Sequence record: NC_094493.1
DNA length: 64,000 nucleotides
Source: a phage
Reading direction: 5' to 3' (one strand)
Position numbers and translations under genes: made by a program. Numbering within the stretch: position 1 is the first letter of the stretch; each line of letters begins with the position of its first letter. A model generated the notes under the pieces. That model was not told the DNA's origin. It worked only from the letters and a program-made list of their open reading frames with translations, and searched no databases. This document shows positions 137-42,120 of the stretch, in pieces.

Positions 137-598
137 CTACTTAAACAACAGTTCAAAATAGTGCAAAATTAACAGAAGTTGAATTACGCCTAGCACAACA
201 GCAAGTATGTTAATCTTAGAATCAAAAAACTTCTTAACTTTTACCCTAAAAGGTTCCTTAATGTCCTTTACGATCCTATCTATAGATGACCTCATATCCC
301 TGATTACCATCCTGAACATTAAAGACGGATGATCCCTCTCTGTAACGGAATCGAAAACATACTCTCTTTGATCACAAGGGCCGCCAGCTCTGCGTATTAA
401 CCTCTCCACAGAGACCTCGTACGACACACCTGTAACGTAATCATCTATGACAAGGAGTGACGGGTCTTTATCGTCCAAGGGTATCAAAGTTATCTTTCCA
501 GATTTTGTTAAAATTTCTCCTTTTTCAAGTAAGGTGTACCAATGCTCTCTGCCAAGACTGTTGAGGCACGTTTTTACATATTTAACAAACATCGTCAC
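137..598 (-). CDS. hypothetical protein with C-terminal hydrophobic helix
   Basis: 153-aa ORF; C-terminal ILAVVLGVIQLLLILHYF resembles a membrane anchor; no catalytic motif recognised. Confidence 0.4.
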   Translation of the reverse strand: MTMFVKYVKTCLNSLGREHWYTLLEKGEILTKSGKITLIPLDDKDPSLLVIDDYVTGVSYEVSVERLIRRAGGPCDQREYVFDSVTERDHPSLMFRMVIRDMRSSIDRIVKDIKEPFRVKVKKFFDSKINILAVVLGVIQLLLILHYFELLFK

Positions 599-798
599 CC
601 CTCATCGCACGTCTGATATAACCACTCTATAAAATCTTGATACCATTCGCCCTCTGAGCGCTCCGTAGGCCAATAATCTTCACCCTCTCGTGCATTAAAA
701 TCTGAGTATTCAACTTTCCACTCCTTTACCAGCTCGTGGAGAAGGTTTTCAGCCTGCTCTAAAGATTTATTTTTTGCCATTGCTGTCTCCTTTTTCAA
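595..798 (-). CDS. hypothetical small protein
   Basis: 67-aa ORF in same-strand gene run; start overlaps stop of upstream ORF. Confidence 0.3.
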   Translation of the reverse strand: MKKETAMAKNKSLEQAENLLHELVKEWKVEYSDFNAREGEDYWPTERSEGEWYQDFIEWLYQTCDEG

Positions 799-999
799 GA
801 TAGTTATACATCAGAACTGCACCACCTAAGATGGCTACCAGTAACAATACCCCAGATAGCATCTCAATAAACATGGCTTGAAACACTGGAAGGTCTCCCT
901 AAATTAACGCACCATTTTAAATACATGCTCTTTTCCCATAAAGGTGCCTGGCTAAGATCTGCGTAGAACGCAATCTCTTTAAGAACAGTATAAACAGTT

Positions 1000-1236
1000 T
1001 TAGGTGCGGTCTCCATCCCTACTCTCCTTTTTCTCCTTACGGATATTCTTGTAGTAATCAACTAGGCACATTATTACAATGAAGATAACAATAGGCCAAA
1101 AAGGTGCAGCAGTGATGATGGTGATAAAATCATCAAACTTCACCTTTCGTCTAGCTACTATGCATACACCTGTCAAGAATACCGCTGTTATAACGGCTAT
1201 TACCAGGTAACCTATTAGCACAGCATTTATACTCAT
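1000..1236 (-). CDS. small membrane protein (two predicted TM helices)
   Basis: 78 aa; hydrophobic segments AVLIGYLVIAVITAVFLTGVCIV and ITAAPFWPIVIFIVIMCLV; charged C-tail. Confidence 0.4.
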   Translation of the reverse strand: MSINAVLIGYLVIAVITAVFLTGVCIVARRKVKFDDFITIITAAPFWPIVIFIVIMCLVDYYKNIRKEKKESRDGDRT

Positions 1237-26879: not shown

Positions 26880-27230
26880 TCAGTAGATGTTTTGTTTAAT
26901 CTCTATTCCAAACTTTTTAAACGAGTCAGCTGCAAGCATGAATTTACGAGCCGCTGATGGATTAGAAGTATGTACGAAAATCTTCACGTTGTCAACCACG
27001 GGAGGCTTACCGAATACAAATTTTTCCTCCAACATGGATAGGCAATCGTATCCTTCGAATACTTCTCCTAGGTCGTTGTCCATATGCCACTCAGAAACGC
27101 GTCTGTAGAGCTTTCCCTTATCGTTAATAAAATCCATAAACTCGGAGGAATTCTTCAGCCAAACAGCGTCTGGGAGCCCGTAATTTGACGGATCTCTTAA
27201 GTCATCTAGCCACACAATCAACTTCTTCAT
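26880..27230 (-). CDS. small alpha/beta protein with receiver/flavodoxin-like acidic motifs
   Basis: 116 aa; LIVWLDDLRDP, HMDNDLGE, IFVHTSNP; ATGA-coupled to rnlA and 9 nt upstream of the Sir2 gene. Confidence 0.35.
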   Translation of the reverse strand: MKKLIVWLDDLRDPSNYGLPDAVWLKNSSEFMDFINDKGKLYRRVSEWHMDNDLGEVFEGYDCLSMLEEKFVFGKPPVVDNVKIFVHTSNPSAARKFMLAADSFKKFGIEIKQNIY

Positions 27231-28162
27231 TGCATATAGTTCTCGTTGTGGAAATAGTAATCAAGTATCTCACGGCGTTCCTGCTCCAGGAGGCAGTTCC
27301 ACACATCCTCTGTGTAATTGCTACGAATGAAGTTTACCATGCCGTAAAACTCTTCGTCAACACGTTTAAAGATATCATCATCCCAAATCTTCCAAGCTTT
27401 ACCCCTCATTACGGCCTTCCGTGCCAGATAGTATGGAGACTTGATCTTCAGCTGCAGATCATAAGGGTAGTAAGGCTTACGAATCATATACCCTTCACCT
27501 CTTGTTTCTGCAGCTAATTCTTTTGCATAGCTGAACGGAATTTCACGCACAGTGTGAGGACGTTTTGCACCAAGGTATTTGGCAATCCCATCTAAAGCTG
27601 CTTCTGGTAGCATTATTCCAGAATCATTATATCTGCAACCTATCAAATATGCGCCATGATCTTCCTGAACAATATGCGGATCTGAAGGGTGACAAATTTC
27701 AAACATGAATGTCATGTTTTCATTGCCCATAACCTTCTTGATAAGATCTAAATTACCACATTGCTCTTGGATGGTTTCCTTTGCAAGGTTACAATATGGA
27801 GAATCAAGAGACCCGGTTGTTGAGAACAATAGTTCACCTTTATGAGATGATACCACACCGAGGAATCCGTTCTTTTTCTCTACCGCAGTAACAAGTTTAC
27901 TGTCCGGTAGGTTGGTGGAGTTTTCTCCTAAGTTGAATACTTTTGTGAAAGGCCATGCCACAACATTCCCCTCATTGCCAACAACAATACCTCGGCACTC
28001 CAGTAAACGCGGAGACAAATGCCACAGATTGTTGTAGAATACTTTTCTGGCATATTTATAGATCTTTAATCCAAGATCTGGATAATACCGACTGGTTACA
28101 AGACCTTTGTCTACTAGGTCATCTGCATTAAAATACTTCATCATACGTTCCTCATTTGTCAT
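27227..28162 (-). CDS. rnlA: RNA ligase 1 (T4 RnlA-like)
   Basis: 311 aa; RLLECRGIVV...WPFTKVFNLGEN parallels T4 Rnl1 ALECRGIMF...FFNLNEN; motif I lysine in VEKKNG. Confidence 0.8.
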   Translation of the reverse strand: MTNEERMMKYFNADDLVDKGLVTSRYYPDLGLKIYKYARKVFYNNLWHLSPRLLECRGIVVGNEGNVVAWPFTKVFNLGENSTNLPDSKLVTAVEKKNGFLGVVSSHKGELLFSTTGSLDSPYCNLAKETIQEQCGNLDLIKKVMGNENMTFMFEICHPSDPHIVQEDHGAYLIGCRYNDSGIMLPEAALDGIAKYLGAKRPHTVREIPFSYAKELAAETRGEGYMIRKPYYPYDLQLKIKSPYYLARKAVMRGKAWKIWDDDIFKRVDEEFYGMVNFIRSNYTEDVWNCLLEQERREILDYYFHNENYMQ

Positions 28163-28205
28163 TTTGTCAGTCTATCCTGCCACACAAATAACCTAGTGTC
28201 AACAC

Positions 28206-28234
28206 TTGAAATTAACAAAACAGTTAGGTATACT
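28206..28234 (+). promoter_or_regulatory. sigma70-type promoter
   Basis: TTGAAA-17nt-TATACT upstream of kinase gene. Confidence 0.45.
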
Positions 28235-28262
28235 ATCATTAAAATTAAAACGGAGGGTTGCT

Positions 28263-28673
28263 ATGTCTAAAATGCTATATATCGTGCGTGGTCTGCCAGG
28301 GTCTGGCAAATCAACACTGGCAAATGCGCTATCTTTAGAAGGTCTGTATCCACATTTTGAGAACGACATGTTCTGGTATGACGATGACGGCAATTACAAC
28401 TGGGATGCAAGTAAAGTAACACTCGCAGCAAAATGGTGCAAAGATAACGTAGAAGATATGATGCGTATGGGATACGACCGTATCGTGGTAAGTAATACGT
28501 TTACAAAAGAAAAACATGTGCAGGAATATGTTGACATGGCAATCAGTCACGGGTATAGTTATACCGTGATCGTGGTTGAAAACCGCCACGGTAATAAAAG
28601 CATTCATGATGTTCCAGACAAGGTTGTGGATCGTATGGAACGCCAGCTTAAAAACTGCATTAAACTTAAATGA
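28263..28673 (+). CDS. P-loop kinase, polynucleotide 5'-kinase-like
   Basis: 136 aa from ATG after GGAGGG; Walker A RGLPGSGKST as in T4 Pnk kinase domain GCPGSGKST. Confidence 0.65.
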   Translation: MSKMLYIVRGLPGSGKSTLANALSLEGLYPHFENDMFWYDDDGNYNWDASKVTLAAKWCKDNVEDMMRMGYDRIVVSNTFTKEKHVQEYVDMAISHGYSYTVIVVENRHGNKSIHDVPDKVVDRMERQLKNCIKLK

Positions 28674-28680
28674 GGAATGT

Positions 28681-29235
28681 ATGAAATACTTTGTAACAAG
28701 CGACACACACTTTCTCCACCAGCGGGTCATGGAGTTTGATTCATGTCAAAAACACAGATCTCAGTATGATCACAATCTTGACAGTATGAATGCGGGAATC
28801 ATCACCAAGTGGAACTCTGTTGTGTCACCTGCAGACACTGTGTTTCACTTGGGAGATATTGCGTGCACTAATGATAAGAATATCAACAAATTGCTCCCAG
28901 ATGTTCTAAATATGTTGAACGGACATATTATTCTTGTTCGTGGTAACCATGACACAAGGACGACTGTCAGAATTATGAAAGAGTTCGGTCATGAGGTTGT
29001 AGATTATTACGAGCTTCGCCACAACAAGAATTTGATCTGTATGAGCCATTACCAGTTTGCAAAGTGGAACAGAAAGCCTCACGGATCAGTCCAACTGTTC
29101 GGTCATGCTCACGGAACCACACAGCAGTTGTTTGGCAGGCAGTTTGATGTCGGTTGGGATGTGTGGGGGAGACTCTTACCATTAGAAGAGGCATACCGTA
29201 TTGCAATGAGTCTTGCTATTGACAGCGGGGAGTAA
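28681..29235 (+). CDS. calcineurin-like metallophosphatase
   Basis: 184 aa from ATG 7 nt after kinase stop with GAGGA RBS; motifs SDTHF, GDIA, GNHD, GHAH. Confidence 0.75.
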   Translation: MKYFVTSDTHFLHQRVMEFDSCQKHRSQYDHNLDSMNAGIITKWNSVVSPADTVFHLGDIACTNDKNINKLLPDVLNMLNGHIILVRGNHDTRTTVRIMKEFGHEVVDYYELRHNKNLICMSHYQFAKWNRKPHGSVQLFGHAHGTTQQLFGRQFDVGWDVWGRLLPLEEAYRIAMSLAIDSGE

Positions 29236-29282: not shown

Positions 29283-29633
29283 ATGAAAGATGGGGATAAG
29301 CTGCTATATCTTAAAGTCCCCCTTGAAATACTGTCTATGTCAAAAGTTTTGAATGACACAACTGGGGAGGTTGTTGTTCTTGACTTATATGACAAGATCG
29401 TATACTGCTACCTGCACAACTGGTATAAGCTTGGAGGAAATTCACGCTTCACACCCAGCACAAGGAAAATTGCAGCAGATGTTGGGATAAAGAAAACAAA
29501 AGCAGCAGCGTGCGTTAAAACTTTAGAATGTGCAGGAGTGGTTGAAATATCCACACAAGGGAGAGGTAAAAGATGTACATTTTCCAAAGTTTTGCCACCA
29601 GAAGAGGTTATTCGAATGTCAACAACTGGTTAG
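29283..29633 (+). CDS. hypothetical protein, possible HTH DNA-binding
   Basis: 116 aa; helix-turn-helix-like TRKIAADVGIKKTKAAACVKTL; immediately upstream of palindrome array. Confidence 0.3.
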   Translation: MKDGDKLLYLKVPLEILSMSKVLNDTTGEVVVLDLYDKIVYCYLHNWYKLGGNSRFTPSTRKIAADVGIKKTKAAACVKTLECAGVVEISTQGRGKRCTFSKVLPPEEVIRMSTTG

Positions 29634-29709
29634 ACCAGTAAAAACTTAAATATCTGTACTATAAGGATTCGTATGTTTTATGTTCGCTCTGGAACAGAGG
29701 TCAGTAACT

Positions 29710-29788
29710 GTCCGTGATACGGACACTACTGTCCGTCACGCGGACACATCTGCCCGTAATACGGACACTAACTGTCCGTGATACGGAC
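29710..29788. repeat. array of four 15-bp palindromes GTCCGT-N3/4-ACGGAC
   Basis: copies start near 29710, 29731, 29752, 29774 (21-22 bp spacing); followed by AT-rich tract with AGTAC...GTACT palindromes. Confidence 0.7.
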
Positions 29789-29929
29789 ACATAAAGAATA
29801 TAACTAAAATAACTAAATAATAAAAATAAAAGATCTAGTACTTATGGTACTAAGTACATATACTTAACTTATGTAGAATATACTAGATCCTAAGTACCAT
29901 GTTTTAAAATTATTACTTACTATAGGTAG

Positions 29930-30180
29930 TGTCGGCCCTTCATTGGCACTCGCCTACGAGGGGCGAGATGCCGGGCCTCCTTGGTGCACACAATAACAGA
30001 AGTGCATACATGCAGGTCTGTTAACATGTGTGGGAGCGAAGCGATAGCGCAGGCCAAAGGCCGAGCACTGATGTGGACCACCGACGAAAGCTTGCCAGCG
30101 CCGTAAGGAGTCGGTTGAGAGTCTCCCGCGCGAGCTTGGATGAAGTTTATGTGTGGAAACTGACAAGAAGGCCCCTAAAT
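29930..30180. ncRNA. candidate structured non-coding RNA (GC-rich island, strand undetermined)
   Basis: about 250 nt visibly GC-rich in AT-rich context, no credible ORF, local hairpins (ctcgcc/ggcgag; ccgac...gtcgg). Confidence 0.25.
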
Positions 30181-30292
30181 CGCTCCACAGCTATATAAAC
30201 TATACCAGGTAATGCAATCGCACCAGTTTGATAGAAAAGCTCGTTACAAAGTGATACAGTGAGTTTTTCTATAACTTGAAGAGGAGGCGGCT

Positions 30293-30871
30293 ATGGGTTC
30301 ACGCAAAGATGACCGTGAAAAGATTGCAAAACGTTATCAGAATGAAGAACAGATGGAGAAAACTTTCAAATGGAAGCCTGGTTTCCAGCGTAATCATTCT
30401 AACGCTCGTGATCGTAAGCATCCAGATAAGTGGCTAACACCGCCAAATGATGGCATGCAGGTTGGTGATGAGAAGGAGATGTCACCTGGAAAAGATGGCA
30501 ACTACATTCGCACTAAGGAAGCTGGTCCAAAGGATGACAGCTATCTTGTAGATAAGGTTCTTAATGGTATTGATGTAGATGTTGACACTGCACGAAACCT
30601 TTTTCTTGGTTGGTATCGTACAGGGTTTTTCGACATCAAGGCTATTCGTCGTGTTTGTGATATTAAAAAGTCTGCCTATGATGATGACTCCCTACATCGC
30701 ACTCTGAGACAATACTCAGAGAGATACGGTCATCCAGTTATCACTCTTGACGATATTAACGAAGTGATGTATCATGCAGAGGTTGTTGCAGGTAGATTCG
30801 GTGATGCATATCTAGATATCCTTTCTGCAAAGGATGAGGTAATGTTAAATAAGATTTACTATGAACGCTGA
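30293..30871 (+). CDS. hypothetical protein
   Basis: 192-aa ORF with GAGGAGG RBS; no motif recognised. Confidence 0.4.
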   Translation: MGSRKDDREKIAKRYQNEEQMEKTFKWKPGFQRNHSNARDRKHPDKWLTPPNDGMQVGDEKEMSPGKDGNYIRTKEAGPKDDSYLVDKVLNGIDVDVDTARNLFLGWYRTGFFDIKAIRRVCDIKKSAYDDDSLHRTLRQYSERYGHPVITLDDINEVMYHAEVVAGRFGDAYLDILSAKDEVMLNKIYYER

Positions 30872-31070
30872 GGGGTGCTTAATGAACAATCCGGTAGCAA
30901 AGAACTGTAATAAGTTCAACAAGTCTGCAATTCACACTGACAGGAAAAAGAGCTGGTCTCCTGACATTGACGAGGAGCTTGAGAGTTACTTTGAAGACAT
31001 GGTCACCAATGCAGATGAGGTTGCGATTAAAGAATACGCAGACAGGAAGGATAAGGCCGGAATCTGTTGA
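30861..31070 (+). CDS. hypothetical small protein
   Basis: 69-aa ORF overlapping stop of upstream gene. Confidence 0.3.
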   Translation: MNAEGCLMNNPVAKNCNKFNKSAIHTDRKKSWSPDIDEELESYFEDMVTNADEVAIKEYADRKDKAGIC

Positions 31071-31095
31071 CAAAAATAGTGTTACCTGATAAGAT
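31067..31095 (+). promoter_or_regulatory. sigma70-type promoter
   Basis: TTGACA-17nt-TAAGAT upstream of 31147..31389. Confidence 0.5.
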
Positions 31096-31146
31096 CTGCA
31101 ATATGATGTGATGCAATTTTAACTTACGAGGTCTACAGGTAATGCT

Positions 31147-31389
31147 ATGTTTAAGGTTAAGCTCGTTTTTCGTTCCATGAATGAGGATTATTTAGAAGAT
31201 GAAGGTGAATTTCGTGCACTGGATGATGCAATAGATTTTGCCAACGACTTAGCTTGTATGAATACAGGTTATGGGCTATGTTGTTGGGATGGTGGTGTTC
31301 AGATCGGTGATAGCAAGATCTTCTACTTCTACCCTGAGCCTGATAACAAACAAATTAAGTATGTTTTATTTATTTGTGCTTTACAATGA
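31147..31389 (+). CDS. hypothetical protein
   Basis: 80-aa ORF; acidic. Confidence 0.35.
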   Translation: MFKVKLVFRSMNEDYLEDEGEFRALDDAIDFANDLACMNTGYGLCCWDGGVQIGDSKIFYFYPEPDNKQIKYVLFICALQ

Positions 31390-31429
31390 GGTTGTTTTCG
31401 TGTATCATGATGAATATCCAATTTAAAGA

Positions 31430-31680
31430 TGAATTTGATGGCTTTATCTCTGGATGCTTTGAAACAGGGTTCGGAGAAGGCTGAGTTCCCCTTAGAGGGC
31501 TTGATAGTGCACCACACTTAAAATGGTAGGGGCAGCCAGCACATGACGATGTGACCCCAGCCAACCTGTAACAAGGTCGAGCCGAAGCGCGGGTAATAGG
31601 CCTCTGGTAACCCACTTGTTGGGTCTTGCTGGTCCAGGACGCTGGACAAGTCGCAGGGAATACCACCCTGCGGCGAACTT
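31430..31680. ncRNA. candidate structured non-coding RNA (GC-rich island, strand undetermined)
   Basis: about 250 nt GC-rich, no credible ORF; perfect small hairpins cacat-GACG-atgtg, gtccag-GACG-ctggac, caggg-aatacca-ccctg. Confidence 0.3.
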
Positions 31681-31707
31681 GACAATCAGTATTTGCTATG
31701 ATAAAAT
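31679..31707 (+). promoter_or_regulatory. sigma70-type promoter
   Basis: TTGACA-17nt-TAAAAT; GGAGG RBS and ATG at 31736 follow. Confidence 0.55.
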
Positions 31708-31735
31708 CCACCTATCACGTGATAATGGAGGAAAC

Positions 31736-32074
31736 ATGGCGGATACAACTAAAAAGCGTCGCCGTAGAGGCAGACCTCTGAAAGAGGAGTCCAACGCCAT
31801 TCAGCTAGAGAAGAACATCCTTGATATGAAGGAATCTTTTATAGCGATGGTTCCAGAAGCTCACAAAGTTTTAAGAGAGCTGATGTTGGACCCGAAAACC
31901 AAACAAAATATTCGTCAAAGCATTGCAGAGTATGTTCTTGATAAGGCAGACCGAATGCAGGAAGAATATGATGAGATGTTTGGTGAAGAGGAAGAGGTGG
32001 TAGTGGAAGAGGCTGAAAAACCAGCACCTTTTATGCCATTTACTACAGAAATACAGCCTGTTAGCAATAGCTAA
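31736..32074 (+). CDS. small DNA-binding protein with AT-hook-like motif and acidic tail
   Basis: 112 aa from ATG; N-terminal KKRRRRGRPLKEE, C-terminal EEYDEMFGEEEEVVVEE. Confidence 0.4.
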   Translation: MADTTKKRRRRGRPLKEESNAIQLEKNILDMKESFIAMVPEAHKVLRELMLDPKTKQNIRQSIAEYVLDKADRMQEEYDEMFGEEEEVVVEEAEKPAPFMPFTTEIQPVSNS

Positions 32075-32083
32075 AATATTTTC

Positions 32084-32112
32084 TTGACAAACTTTGCTTA
32101 ACAGTGTAATAT
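32084..32112 (+). promoter_or_regulatory. sigma70 consensus promoter of tRNA cluster
   Basis: TTGACA-17nt-TAATAT about 60 nt upstream of first tRNA. Confidence 0.6.
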
Positions 32113-32170
32113 TGTAAACATGGTCTCCCACCTTTTCTGGCGGCTAAGGTGTAAAAGAAAGCCACCCAGT

Positions 32171-32245
32171 GCCCTGTTAGCTTAGTGGATAAAGCAGCGG
32201 CCTTCTAAGCCGTTGACACTGGTTCGAGTCCAGTACGGGGTGCCA
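32171..32245 (+). tRNA. tRNA-Arg (anticodon TCT)
   Basis: cloverleaf drawn by hand: acceptor gccctgt/acggggt, anticodon loop cttctaa, T-loop ttcgagt, encoded CCA. Confidence 0.75.
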
Positions 32246-32249
32246 AATT

Positions 32250-32336
32250 GGGGAGTTATCCCGTAGAGGTAGCGGTGTAGACTGTAAATCTATTGTCATT
32301 GCGACTCGGGTGGTTCGACTCCACCACTCCCCACCA
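32250..32336 (+). tRNA. tRNA-Tyr (anticodon GTA), long variable arm
   Basis: acceptor ggggagt/actcccc, anticodon loop ctgtaaa, T-arm ggtgg-ttcgact-ccacc, CCA; 87 nt. Confidence 0.75.
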
Positions 32337-32450
32337 AATTTATATTTTTAGATGCATAAATAATACAGATAATGGCATTGATATTTATCGTCGTTTATAC
32401 TAGTCACTAACTGCTCGAAAATCAGTGTCATTATCAGTATAATTTATAAA

Positions 32451-32541
32451 GGAGGGTAGGGAGCAATGGTGCTCAAGCGGTCTTGAAAACCGTCCCGTTG
32501 AGGATGACTCGATGATGGTTCGATTCCATTACTCTCCGCCA
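32451..32541 (+). tRNA. tRNA-Ser (anticodon TGA), long variable arm
   Basis: acceptor ggagggt/actctcc, anticodon stem gcggt/accgt with loop cttgaaa, T-loop ttcgatt, CCA; about 91 nt. Confidence 0.7.
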
Positions 32542-32639
32542 CATTGTTGACCTTGTAATTAAGCGAAAGCCGGAAGCAGAACCGGATTATCAAATGTTAC
32601 AGTCGTCATCGCCGACTAGCAACATGGTCAACATACTGA

Positions 32640-32736
32640 GCTAGGTAAGCCCTTTGGCAAGGGCGAGGATTTTTAATCCTGAAAATAGACGAGGTAGTCG
32701 TTGAATACATAGGTGGTTCGATTCCATCACCTAGCA
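32640..32736 (+). tRNA. atypical tRNA-like gene (possible tRNA-Lys TTT variant, about 97 nt)
   Basis: acceptor gctaggt/acctagc, D-arm gccc...gggc, T-arm ggtgg-ttcgatt-ccatc; anticodon arm aggatttttaatcct ambiguous; about 30-nt extra arm; no CCA. Confidence 0.45.
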
Positions 32737-32743
32737 CCTTTTT

Positions 32744-32819
32744 GCTGATGTAGCACAATCGGTAGTGCAATTGATTTGTAATCAATAGGTTGTAGGTTCA
32801 AGTCCTGCCATCAGCACCA
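32744..32819 (+). tRNA. tRNA-Thr (anticodon TGT)
   Basis: acceptor gctgatg/catcagc, anticodon stem attga/tcaat with loop tttgtaa, T-loop ttcaagt, CCA. Confidence 0.75.
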
Positions 32820-32820
32820 A

Positions 32821-32895
32821 GGCCCTGTAGCTGGAAGGTTCAAGCAAGCGACTCATAATCGCCAGACGGTGGTTCAATTCCACCCAGGGCCACCA
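32821..32895 (+). tRNA. tRNA-Met/Ile2 (anticodon CAT), elongator-type
   Basis: acceptor ggccctg/cagggcc with paired 1-72, anticodon loop ctcataa, T-arm ggtgg-ttcaatt-ccacc, CCA. Confidence 0.7.
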
Positions 32896-32906
32896 AATAG
32901 TAAATA

Positions 32907-32983
32907 CTCCGCGTAGCTCAGCTTGGTAGAGCGCCTGATTTGGGATCAGGAGGTCGAGTGTTCGAATCACTCCGTGGAGACCA
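32907..32983 (+). tRNA. tRNA-Pro (anticodon TGG)
   Basis: acceptor ctccgcg/cgtggag, anticodon stem cctga/tcagg with loop tttggga, T-loop ttcgaat, CCA. Confidence 0.75.
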
Positions 32984-41265: not shown

Positions 41266-42120
41266 GTGAATAGAGTTGTATATCCAGTCGAGTATGATCC
41301 TCTATTAAGAGTTTTCAACAATCAGTTAAGTTTTTATCAATTTTTAGCACAATACAATCCAGAAATCAATGTTGGTTTATCAGCCCTGCTGCCACCAACA
41401 GAGTTCGTTATTGGAAGTGTTCACTATCCATGCAGAACGATTGTAGACTTCTTCGAGAAGATTGCAAAACACACAGGCCTGCCAATTGATACTGGTATCT
41501 CAACTATCCGTATGGGTGTTATTCTTCTGTTCTTCACAGAGAACCTTGATGAAAGCACTTTAACACTGCAAAGCGGTGATGTCAATATCACACTCACCCC
41601 GTCAGTGTTTAAAGAGGTAGATGCCGCTTTCAAAGTTTCAGTGGCAGAGGGCCATCTGTGGGACCCTGAAGGGATGCCCAAAAAAGTGACCATAAACGAT
41701 GAGCAATGCGATGTTGCTTATGCAGAAGATACCCAGACTTTCACCATTGAGTGGCCTAAGAAACGTTCTCAGGTTGTAAATCTTGGGCTGACTTCTACAG
41801 TAGCCCCAGAACCTGAACCAGAGCCGGAGCCACCTGTAGGCCCTACTGAACCTGGTGGTGGCAGTGAGGAATCACCAGGCCCGACCGCACAGGAGGGTAC
41901 GGAAGGTACTGAACAGGATCCTGAGCAGGCACAAGAATCAAGATCTTCTCACGGCGATGTTGATGCCATACTGCACCAAGCCGCAGCTCTTAACAACGAA
42001 GATGACAAAAGTGGTTCGAAAGATGCACTCCAAACCTTCGCCAAAGAGCACGGTGTTACCTTAAGTAAGGCAAAAACTTTCCAAAATATGATGAAAGATT
42101 TTGAGGCTGCACTGGCATAA
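41266..42120 (+). CDS. hypothetical structural protein with PE-repeat linker
   Basis: 284 aa, GTG start after AGGAG; APEPEPEPEPP linker. Confidence 0.35.
   Translation: MNRVVYPVEYDPLLRVFNNQLSFYQFLAQYNPEINVGLSALLPPTEFVIGSVHYPCRTIVDFFEKIAKHTGLPIDTGISTIRMGVILLFFTENLDESTLTLQSGDVNITLTPSVFKEVDAAFKVSVAEGHLWDPEGMPKKVTINDEQCDVAYAEDTQTFTIEWPKKRSQVVNLGLTSTVAPEPEPEPEPPVGPTEPGGGSEESPGPTAQEGTEGTEQDPEQAQESRSSHGDVDAILHQAAALNNEDDKSGSKDALQTFAKEHGVTLSKAKTFQNMMKDFEAALA

Follow-up and report, generated by a model that had tools for sequence, protein, structure and literature searches.

A conserved, structured non-coding module beside an iteron-type, origin-like region of rV5-like coliphages and satellite-like plasmids

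Classical single-strand initiation (ssi) signals measure about 40-140 nt. Those of the G4 type, found in the oric of phages G4, alpha3 and St-1 and in plasmid ssi, act independently of an initiator, and at the oric the DnaG primer on the SSB-coated strand starts at a CTG located 3' of hairpin I. The oriV of plasmid RSF1010/R1162 is composed of iterons, GC-rich and AT-rich segments, and then the ssiA/ssiB hairpins used by the RepB' primase. In the lambda ori, the dyad iterons bound by O lie inside the O gene and the adjacent palindrome measures 28 bp. P4-like satellites, for their part, copy the cos site of their helper. Mini-hairpins of the GCGAAGC, CGNNAG and CCGAAGG types occur in single-strand initiation sites, e.g., the G4 oric and RSF1010 ssiA, the latter containing CCGAAGG (PMC13037366).

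In the present study, we compared with these systems a GC-rich, non-coding island of an rV5-like coliphage. The paper on rV5 did not locate the origin or discuss the gap that holds the island, and ascribed the skew changes to transcription (PMC3606486). As in the RSF1010/R1162 oriV, iterons are followed by an AT-rich tract and then by hairpins that would be the priming signals, and the CCGAAGG of ssiA recurs in one of the satellite-like plasmids described below (L015); unlike in RSF1010, neither a RepB'-type primase nor an oppositely oriented 40-nt ssi pair was identified. The resemblance to the lambda ori lies in four dyad iterons about two helical turns apart, followed by an AT-rich tract and palindromic DNA, and in a 116-aa winged-helix protein that weakly matches O-like initiator families; unlike in lambda, the gene does not contain the iterons, its initiator-like product has only 116 aa, and the hairpin module extends over about 260 nt. 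Taken together, the island is probably a conserved, cis-acting, structured element that is coupled to an origin-like region of the iteron type and that satellite-like plasmids also possess. In the searchable literature, we came across no account of the element and none that treats these plasmids as satellites.

The intergenic gap and its origin-like left half

The window, i.e., the whole 64,000-nt stretch of record NC_094493.1 that was analyzed, derives from a Vequintavirus (rV5-like E. coli myophage). The 701 bases around the island match 118 phage records at 90-99.9% identity, and all of these are Vequintavirus, including 18 labelled "Campylobacter phage". The latter (MG065646-MG065690, host given as C. 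jejuni) share 97-99.9% identity with genomes of E. coli Vequintavirus across the region, and either their host label is probably wrong or their source was a contaminating coliphage. Similarly, CP057073.1, a 137,565-bp "E. coli plasmid" with an island match of 99.3%, may be a phage genome that was entered as a plasmid, given its rV5-type genome size.

Gene order runs from an RNA ligase (minus strand) to a polynucleotide-kinase-like ATPase, a metallophosphoesterase and the 116-aa winged-helix (wHTH) protein (all plus strand). Beyond these lie a 659-nt gap, the gene of a 192-aa hypothetical protein, three small genes and seven clustered tRNA genes; the same neighbourhood is seen in annotated Vequintavirus relatives. 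The RNA-repair set (27227-29235), divergent around the strand switch, comprises a T4 Rnl1-type RNA ligase (minus strand), an AAA_33/zeta-toxin-like kinase that is annotated as polynucleotide kinase in relatives, and the metallophosphoesterase. Among the tRNAs, the one called by ARAGORN at 32640-32738 is 99 nt long, has an anticodon of four bases (atcc) and was assigned no amino acid (Rfam, 35.5 bits). Relatives list it as tRNA-Lys(TTT) or "tRNA-OTHER", and it may contain an intron or be aberrant. As a large myophage in which a tRNA cluster and RNA-repair genes are close by, the phage recalls T4, to whose stable RNAs, co-transcribed with the tRNAs and processed from their precursor, the original prediction had likened the island. 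This comparison did not hold: unlike the T4 RNAs, the element lies outside the tRNA cluster, has no tRNA-like fold and matches no Rfam family. It ends at 30190, 2 kb and four protein genes (ORFs 30293-30871, 30861-31070, 31147-31389 and 31736-32074) upstream of the tRNAs (32171-32983).

The gap (29634-30292), bounded by the wHTH ORF (29283-29633) and ORF 30293-30871, is as free of genes as had been predicted: its ORFs all measure 31-70 aa, among them the 70-aa minus-strand ORF (29954-30166) pointed out in advance. The reported richness in GC is real, at 0.525-0.53 over 29900-30199 versus 0.355-0.36 just upstream (0.52-0.53 for the island itself), but the rise is modest, and it is not unique, as the 64 kb contain about ten further 250-nt windows with a GC of at least 0.50 (e.g., 0.544 at 41751-42000). 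The genome, with an average GC of about 0.43, had been called AT-rich with some exaggeration. Folded as a single sequence with RNA parameters, the island deviates from shuffles weakly and nearly strand-symmetrically (z = -2.76 for the plus strand and -2.49 for the minus strand), and DNA parameters give z = -2.55 (plus strand, -49.3 kcal/mol) and -2.18 (minus strand). GC composition and single-sequence folding alone are unconvincing; it is the comparative evidence that makes the feature real.

The left half of the gap has the layout of an iteron origin. The 116-aa wHTH protein (29283-29633, plus strand) is a candidate iteron-binding initiator: it is annotated as "replication initiation protein" or "transcriptional regulator" in relatives, matches PHROG phrog_12838 "replication initiation protein" (2.5e-80) with weak matches to other initiator and O-like families, and falls just under the cut-off for Pfam DUF6945/HTH_36. 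Starting 66 bp past the end of its gene, a repeat search delineated four iterons (29699-29790), each a dyad (ACTGTCCGTGATACGGACAC), spaced by 21, 21 and 22 bp; thus, as is typical of iteron origins, at least three direct repeats stand in helical phase. Elsewhere in the 64 kb the iteron pattern (GTCCGTNNNNCGGAC) finds just one site, with one mismatch (expected matches, 0.32), and in phage pangalan the iterons carry a repeat_region annotation. Directly adjacent, as an unwinding region would be, lies an AT-rich tract (29791-29919; GC 0.355-0.36 in overlapping windows) with two GATC sites, nested palindromes (GATCTAGTA...TACTAGATC) and TAAGTAC repeats, in which only 8 of the 129 sites vary across eight phages. 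DnaA boxes (TTWTNCACA) are missing from the whole interval between 21358 and 36758, hence from the gap, and the cumulative GC-skew minimum of the window falls at about 28.0-28.25 kb, at the strand switch and 1.5-1.9 kb to the left of the region. The phage also encodes a primase-helicase of the T7-gp4 type. The wHTH protein and the four dyad repeats could instead represent an autoregulated repressor and its operators.

The strongest clue to the function of the island is this genomic context. In every lineage that carries it, the order and polarity are identical, from iterons through an AT-rich stretch to the structured module. The iterons themselves are lineage-specific, reading GTCCGTnnnnCGGAC in phages of the window type, ATCTGATRCA..TATGYATCAGAT in two divergent phages (L011 and L041), and several different repeats among the plasmids. 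The DNA-binding protein changes along with them, being a 116-aa wHTH protein, a 143-aa wHTH protein, or a Rep-like HTH protein of about 300 aa with weak matches to phrog_428/391 and to replication-initiator and O-like families. Its gene lies upstream in phages and downstream in plasmids, and still the order of iterons, AT tract and module is kept.

Architecture and conservation of the module

The island constitutes a structured module of about 260 nt (29929-30190). A hypervariable 10-nt linker (29920-29929), in which 8 of 10 positions vary among eight phages, forms the boundary between the AT-rich tract and the module. Then comes hairpin H1 (29934-29977, plus strand; GGCCC / GGCA / CUCGCC ... 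GGCGAG / UGCC / GGGCC), which shows compensatory changes, and a variable hairpin region, H2 (29982-30025, plus strand; AACAG..UGCA-UACA-UGCA..CUGUU), in which 24 of the 44 sites vary. H2 is in part dispensable: rV5 has lost 18 nt of it (29990-30007), and the two H2 changes of pangalan are not compensatory. The following segment (30026-30066, plus strand), conserved in relatives, consists of a ATGTGTGGGA box, a GCGAAGC mini-hairpin (30036-30042) and a GGCC-AAA-GGCC hairpin, and is the counterpart of the "cassettes" of the satellite-like plasmids, where homologous cassettes were found. In the core (30067-30135, plus strand), ATGTGGACC precedes a co-varying helix formed by ACCGAC (30080-30085) and GTCGGT (30110-30115), which encloses GAAAGCTTGCCAGCGCCG(T/G)AAGGA, invariant apart from the T/G, and is followed by GAGAGTCTCCCGCGCG. 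The 3' part (30136-30190, plus strand), with 12 of 50 sites variable, contains a small hairpin (AGCTT..AAGTT), a ATGTGTGGA box and the motif GGCCCCTAAAT(C/G)GC (30170-30183), which is common to all satellites and to L041, and it terminates in GGCCCCTAAATCGC.

Three blocks predicted to be unpaired, GAAAGCTTGCCAGCGCCG(T/G)AAGGA, GAGTCTCCCGCGC and CCCTAAAT(G/C)GC, are common to the phages and most of the satellites. As exceptions, plasmid L015 is without GAAAGCTTGCCAGCGCCG(T/G)AAGGA, L041 reads GAGTCTCGCGCGC, and IMGVR11 reads GAGTCTTCCGCGC and CTCTAAAC. CTG triplets are found at 30017, 30064 and 30160, and many of the TGTGTGGG boxes of the satellites are preceded by one, a distribution that is not specific.

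Within the genus, the module is more conserved than its flanks. In the eight-phage alignment, the variable sites per base amount to 0.058 in H1, 0.096 in the core (here taken as 30026-30140) and 0.062 in the AT-rich tract, versus 0.80 in the linker, 0.55 in H2 and 0.19-0.29 in the flanks (0.29 before the iterons). This conservation can hardly be attributed to small proteins. Two plus-strand ORFs of 31 and 56 aa (29929-30024 and 30028-30198) do exist, they are annotated in BASEL phages and in rV5 (gp074), and the 18-nt deletion of rV5 keeps the frame. However, the variable sites are spread evenly over the three codon positions (8/10/9 and 9/10/9 in the two ORFs), Pfam and PHROG searches are without match, and in IMGVR11 and the satellites the nucleotide blocks and helices are retained even though the frames are interrupted or shifted. 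A coding role of the island, which we consider very improbable, was rejected on the codon-position counts and the absent family matches.

Both stems quoted in the original prediction, ctcgcc/ggcgag in H1 and ccgac/gtcgg in the core helix, exist, and the comparative alignment that it had proposed reveals compensatory base changes in each, which supports their maintenance as helices. The six pairs of the core helix are 100% paired in nine distinct sequences, with three of the six changed on both sides (ACCGAC/GUCGGU in the phage versus GCUGCC/GGCAGC in satellites), whereas controls with slid partners are 13-59% paired. H1 is likewise 100% paired over its 15 pairs in four distinct sequences (slid controls, 37-48%), and in plasmid CP020521 two separate pairs have switched on both sides from G-C to U-A. 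In satellite cassette A, both partners differ in 6 of 12 pairs, yet all 12 stay paired throughout (slid controls across helices, 13-59%). Plasmid L015 has GUCCGGAU/AUCCGGAC in place of the whole core hairpin, between retained copies of ATGTGGA and GGAGTCTCCCGCGCG. A covariance model of the core (R1) finds, at 92-98 bits, exactly one copy in each phage and satellite, and no match in the loci around the RNA-ligase gene of Mydovirus, Seunavirus, Phapecoctavirus and a Klebsiella phage.

Several other readings were tried and dropped. A long-range helix, GGGAG (30032-36) with CTCCC (30123-27), looked compensated in IMGVR11 (GGAAG/CTTCC) and was abandoned in view of CTCGC in L041, GGGAA in Aya and an ambiguous alignment; the pairings UAGUGC/GCACUA, GUGCAC/GUGGAC and GGUCU/GGACC, proposed by RNAalifold or by eye, are kept inconsistently. 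The idea of a CsrA sponge based on GGA motifs was rejected, as JEP1 lacks the GGA of the loop. A mimic of the CRISPR repeat was dismissed as well: GAGTCTCCCGCGC presumably resembles the start of the E. coli I-E repeat, without that repeat's hairpin. Readings of short motifs as ops, boxA or DnaA boxes were discarded as not conserved or absent.

Two further features of the region deserve mention. Between the module and the next gene lies a quasi-palindromic box, CAGGTAATGCAATCGCACC (30206-30224), read from the sequence, which, but for one mismatch, equals the reverse complement of GGTGCAATTGCATTACCTG in the corresponding position of the satellites (L008, minus strand, about 12320-12302); judged by this symmetry, it is a putative operator-like site whose orientation is flipped between phage and satellites. 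Moreover, a second GC-rich (0.51-0.54), ORF-free and hairpin-rich gap occurs at 31420-31690, between ORF 31147-31389 and ORF 31736-32074 and some 500 nt before the tRNA cluster. Six further Vequintavirus genomes conserve it at 94-99%, with indels of lengths not divisible by three; it has neither an Rfam match nor a blastn-level match in satellite L008. We regard it as a second candidate structured element.

Occurrence in divergent phages and satellite-like plasmids

A blastn search of the island against E. coli genomes and plasmids returned 85% matches to two island blocks, located in unannotated plasmid DNA. The matching plasmids are small and circular (13.2-13.7 kb), in addition to one 39.6-kb record with three copies: NZ_CP020521.1 (L008), CP148565.1 (L012), NZ_CP035869.1 (L013), NZ_CP043822.1 (L009/L014), CP134895.1 (L015) and NZ_CP178698.1 (L016). 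A motif scan of metagenomes added two satellite contigs of 13.9 and 15.5 kb (L030, L031), which brings plasmids and contigs together to about eight. Plasmids of this family have been deposited as "non-mobilizable". Four of the satellite proteins have homologues in the window, namely the major capsid protein (same PHROG family as that of the phage, 23% pairwise identity), a neck/tail-completion protein (43%), a tail protein (50%) and the tape-measure protein (26%), and the satellites also encode the Rep-like HTH protein and several iteron arrays. Because of these virion-protein homologues, the Rep-like protein and the iteron arrays, the 13-kb plasmids look like plasmid-borne satellites or mini-relatives of rV5-type phages.

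The module of the satellites carries one to four extra cassettes, each opening with (T)GTGTGGG and continuing with one to three short hairpins. Promoter scans of two plasmids placed the best sigma-70-type sites of the downstream operon in the interval that separates the module from the genes; in these plasmids, therefore, the module is no 5' leader. Two other observations were made in the satellites: a C-rich/G-rich hairpin, CCCCCCTAACCCCCC...GGGGGAATGGGGAGGG, is conserved in the interval from the plasmid iterons to the module (L016, 1243-1265; L008, 13180-13202), and on the opposite strand of the iteron-module region three hairpins with T-runs score as terminator-like.

The element also occurs in two divergent phages, IMG/VR contig L011 and Logan contig L041, which differ from the window in their iterons and in having the 143-aa wHTH protein. 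Apart from these phages, the two flanking proteins are confined to the genus, and for the 192-aa protein a 50%-identical homologue exists without the element; this protein is absent from the satellites. In L011, a 287-aa ORF (157-1020, minus strand) directly follows the 192-aa gene; absent from the equivalent position of the window and from the called genes of L041, it represents a lineage-specific insertion. Wider pattern scans covered viral contigs, genome contigs and metagenomes. In viral contigs, the exact pattern recovered one real phage and one chance match, and the gapped pattern nothing; in genome contigs, the exact pattern gave 13 matches in diverse, mostly GC-rich MAGs, which were judged to be chance because of their taxonomy.

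The original prediction had also considered horizontally acquired DNA. This applies only in the sense of a module exchanged between phages and satellite-like plasmids; the island is not junk, since it is among the best-conserved non-coding DNA of the genus. A non-coding element kept similar between a virulent helper-type phage and partial-virion elements is reminiscent of the cos sites of P2/P4 and of the replication hijack of PLE/ICP1. Unlike in those pairs, compensatory change keeps helices here instead of a plain double-stranded site, and the helper role is putative.

Priming signal, structured RNA or packaging site

The option of a packaging or replication cis element, raised from the outset, survives in part. 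The island is a conserved, non-coding, structured cis element, and replication fits best because the module always lies 3' of iterons and an AT-rich tract; packaging is disfavoured by the co-varying arms and the linkage to iterons. We tentatively suggest, as the foremost of several possible readings, that the module is a single-stranded-DNA priming (ssi-like) or primosome-loading part of a replication origin. In such a scheme, the initiator would bind the iterons and open the AT-rich tract, whereupon a helicase travelling rightward would expose the plus strand of the module as single-stranded DNA. This strand would fold into H1, the core helix and mini-hairpins of the GCGAAGC and CGNNAG types, would resist single-strand-binding protein, and would display the unpaired blocks GAAAGCTTGCCAGCGCCGNAAGGA, GAGTCTCCCGCGC and CCCTAAAT to a primase or primosome, for which host DnaG/PriA or the T7-gp4-like primase-helicase of the phage are candidates. 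The display by hairpins would fix the site of the first primer. A priming step independent of the initiator would explain why one module stands behind at least three iteron/initiator pairs, and why it is found in the 13-kb plasmid-like satellites of rV5-type phages.

The closest functional analogy, as opposed to family membership, appears to be with the G4-type ssi signals. Common to both are a cluster of very stable hairpins on one strand (here H1 and the core helix), mini-hairpins of the GCGAAAGC/GCGAAGC type and the wider GCG(N)NAGC type (here GCGAAGC at 30036-30042), and conserved unpaired bases. Short strings are also common to the G4 oric and the module, i.e., GAGTCTCC, ATGTGG..GACC and CGAAAGC, with GTGCCTACGG in a satellite cassette. 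Nevertheless, GAGTCTCC is not conserved in alpha3 or St-1, the motif order differs, and the module is two to three times longer, resides in a double-stranded phage and lies beside iterons. Local alignment to the G4 oric (300 shuffles) is not significant for the window (p = 0.25) or IMGVR11 (p = 0.14), and among the satellites (p = 0.003-0.30) two values are marginal (p = 0.003-0.02, uncorrected); the alpha3 oric shows no similarity (p = 0.25-0.76), and blastn of the G4 oric against plasmids found nothing. Homology to the G4 oric was therefore rejected in favour of analogy only.

Whether the active form is DNA or RNA can be weighed from the helices themselves. DNA is favoured by stems that are almost purely Watson-Crick (G.U was ever seen at about 1 of 56 distinct supported pair positions), by RNA folding energies that are nearly equal for the two strands, and by the presence of the mini-hairpins GCGAAGC and CGAAAG, and of CCGAAGG in plasmid L015. 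We infer that the region functions as an origin, that single-stranded DNA and not RNA is active, and that the activity is one of priming. Against this reading stand the missing DnaA boxes, the position of the GC-skew minimum and the possible repressor role of the wHTH protein; moreover, the module, with 260-400 nt and up to about ten hairpins, exceeds the classical ssi signals, and the enrichment of mini-hairpin motifs is weak in the phage itself.

According to the main rival reading, the plus strand would yield a structured RNA, either a stable non-coding RNA or an intercistronic or leader segment of a long rightward transcript, bound by a phage or host protein for processing, stabilization, antitermination or decoy, with the satellites copying it for the same regulation. 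Such a role is possible, if somewhat less likely than priming. Compensated helices with long invariant unpaired blocks in a multi-helix layout typify functional RNAs, and loops favoured in RNA are present (cUUCGg in two satellite cassettes, GAAA, and a GUAA/GGAA exchange of the GNRA type). One-sided changes give G.U on the plus strand only (A-U to G.U in Aya, IMGVR and L041), a C-G to U.G change occurs in the 3' hairpin, and the folding energy of the plus strand is slightly better in most phages. The region of the phage is also probably transcribed within the rightward unit, near the head of a transcription unit of about 55 genes (PMC3606486), and together with genes 79-77, as no terminator stands between it and the upstream promoter P76. 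Against this stand the near absence of G.U and the almost equal folding of the strands. The Rfam search proposed in the original prediction matched no family to the island, even at E <= 10: with Rfam 15, only tRNAs passed the gathering thresholds across the window, and at E <= 10 over 29600-32200 the best overlapping match, rli43, reached 20.7 bits against a threshold of 100. A tRNA/tmRNA scan found nothing in the gap, no promoter-like or terminator-like site brackets the element (no terminator-like site was predicted anywhere in the phage gap), and the 10 nt just upstream are hypervariable. Furthermore, the operon promoters of the scanned satellites lie downstream of the module, and the sole phage-conserved flanking protein, of 192 aa, has its element-free homologue and is missing from the satellites.

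A pac site for the headful terminase of rV5-like phages, copied by the satellites for packaging, seems improbable. The rV5 genome is circularly permuted (PMC3606486), which implies headful packaging, the 15 annotated genes of the satellites include no terminase or portal gene, and the element is the only non-coding DNA common to phage and satellite at about 85% identity. The repeated (A)TGTGTGG(G/A) boxes, i.e., ATGTGTGG at 30026 and 30149 and ATGTGGAC at 30071, with three to six copies in satellites, would then be the binding sites of the small terminase. Yet 11 pairs co-vary, which recognition of double-stranded DNA would not lead one to expect; the element accompanies iterons, with the terminase genes kilobases away beyond the tRNA cluster; and ATGTGTGG is only mildly over-represented in the window as a whole (7 found versus 2.45 expected, a number reached by 2 of 100 shuffles).

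Returning to the priming reading, a broader proposal, which we put forward as rather speculative, is that the module is a portable replication "start module" exchanged cassette by cassette between virulent rV5-type phages and plasmid-borne, capsid/tail-encoding satellites, or else a new phage/satellite RNA class recognized by a helper factor. If the former were true, the satellites would tap the priming machinery of the helper or host, an origin mimicry by structure and not by sequence. For the rV5-like coliphages, which are of therapeutic and biocontrol use and whose origin has never been mapped, the region offers a specific 0.6-kb candidate with a testable architecture. The 13-kb circular E. 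coli elements, with rV5-type virion genes and the module, likewise make a helper/satellite link testable for a virulent myophage. With its supported helices, invariant loops and swappable cassettes, the module may represent a single-strand initiation signal of a new class or, alternatively, a structured RNA that is new.
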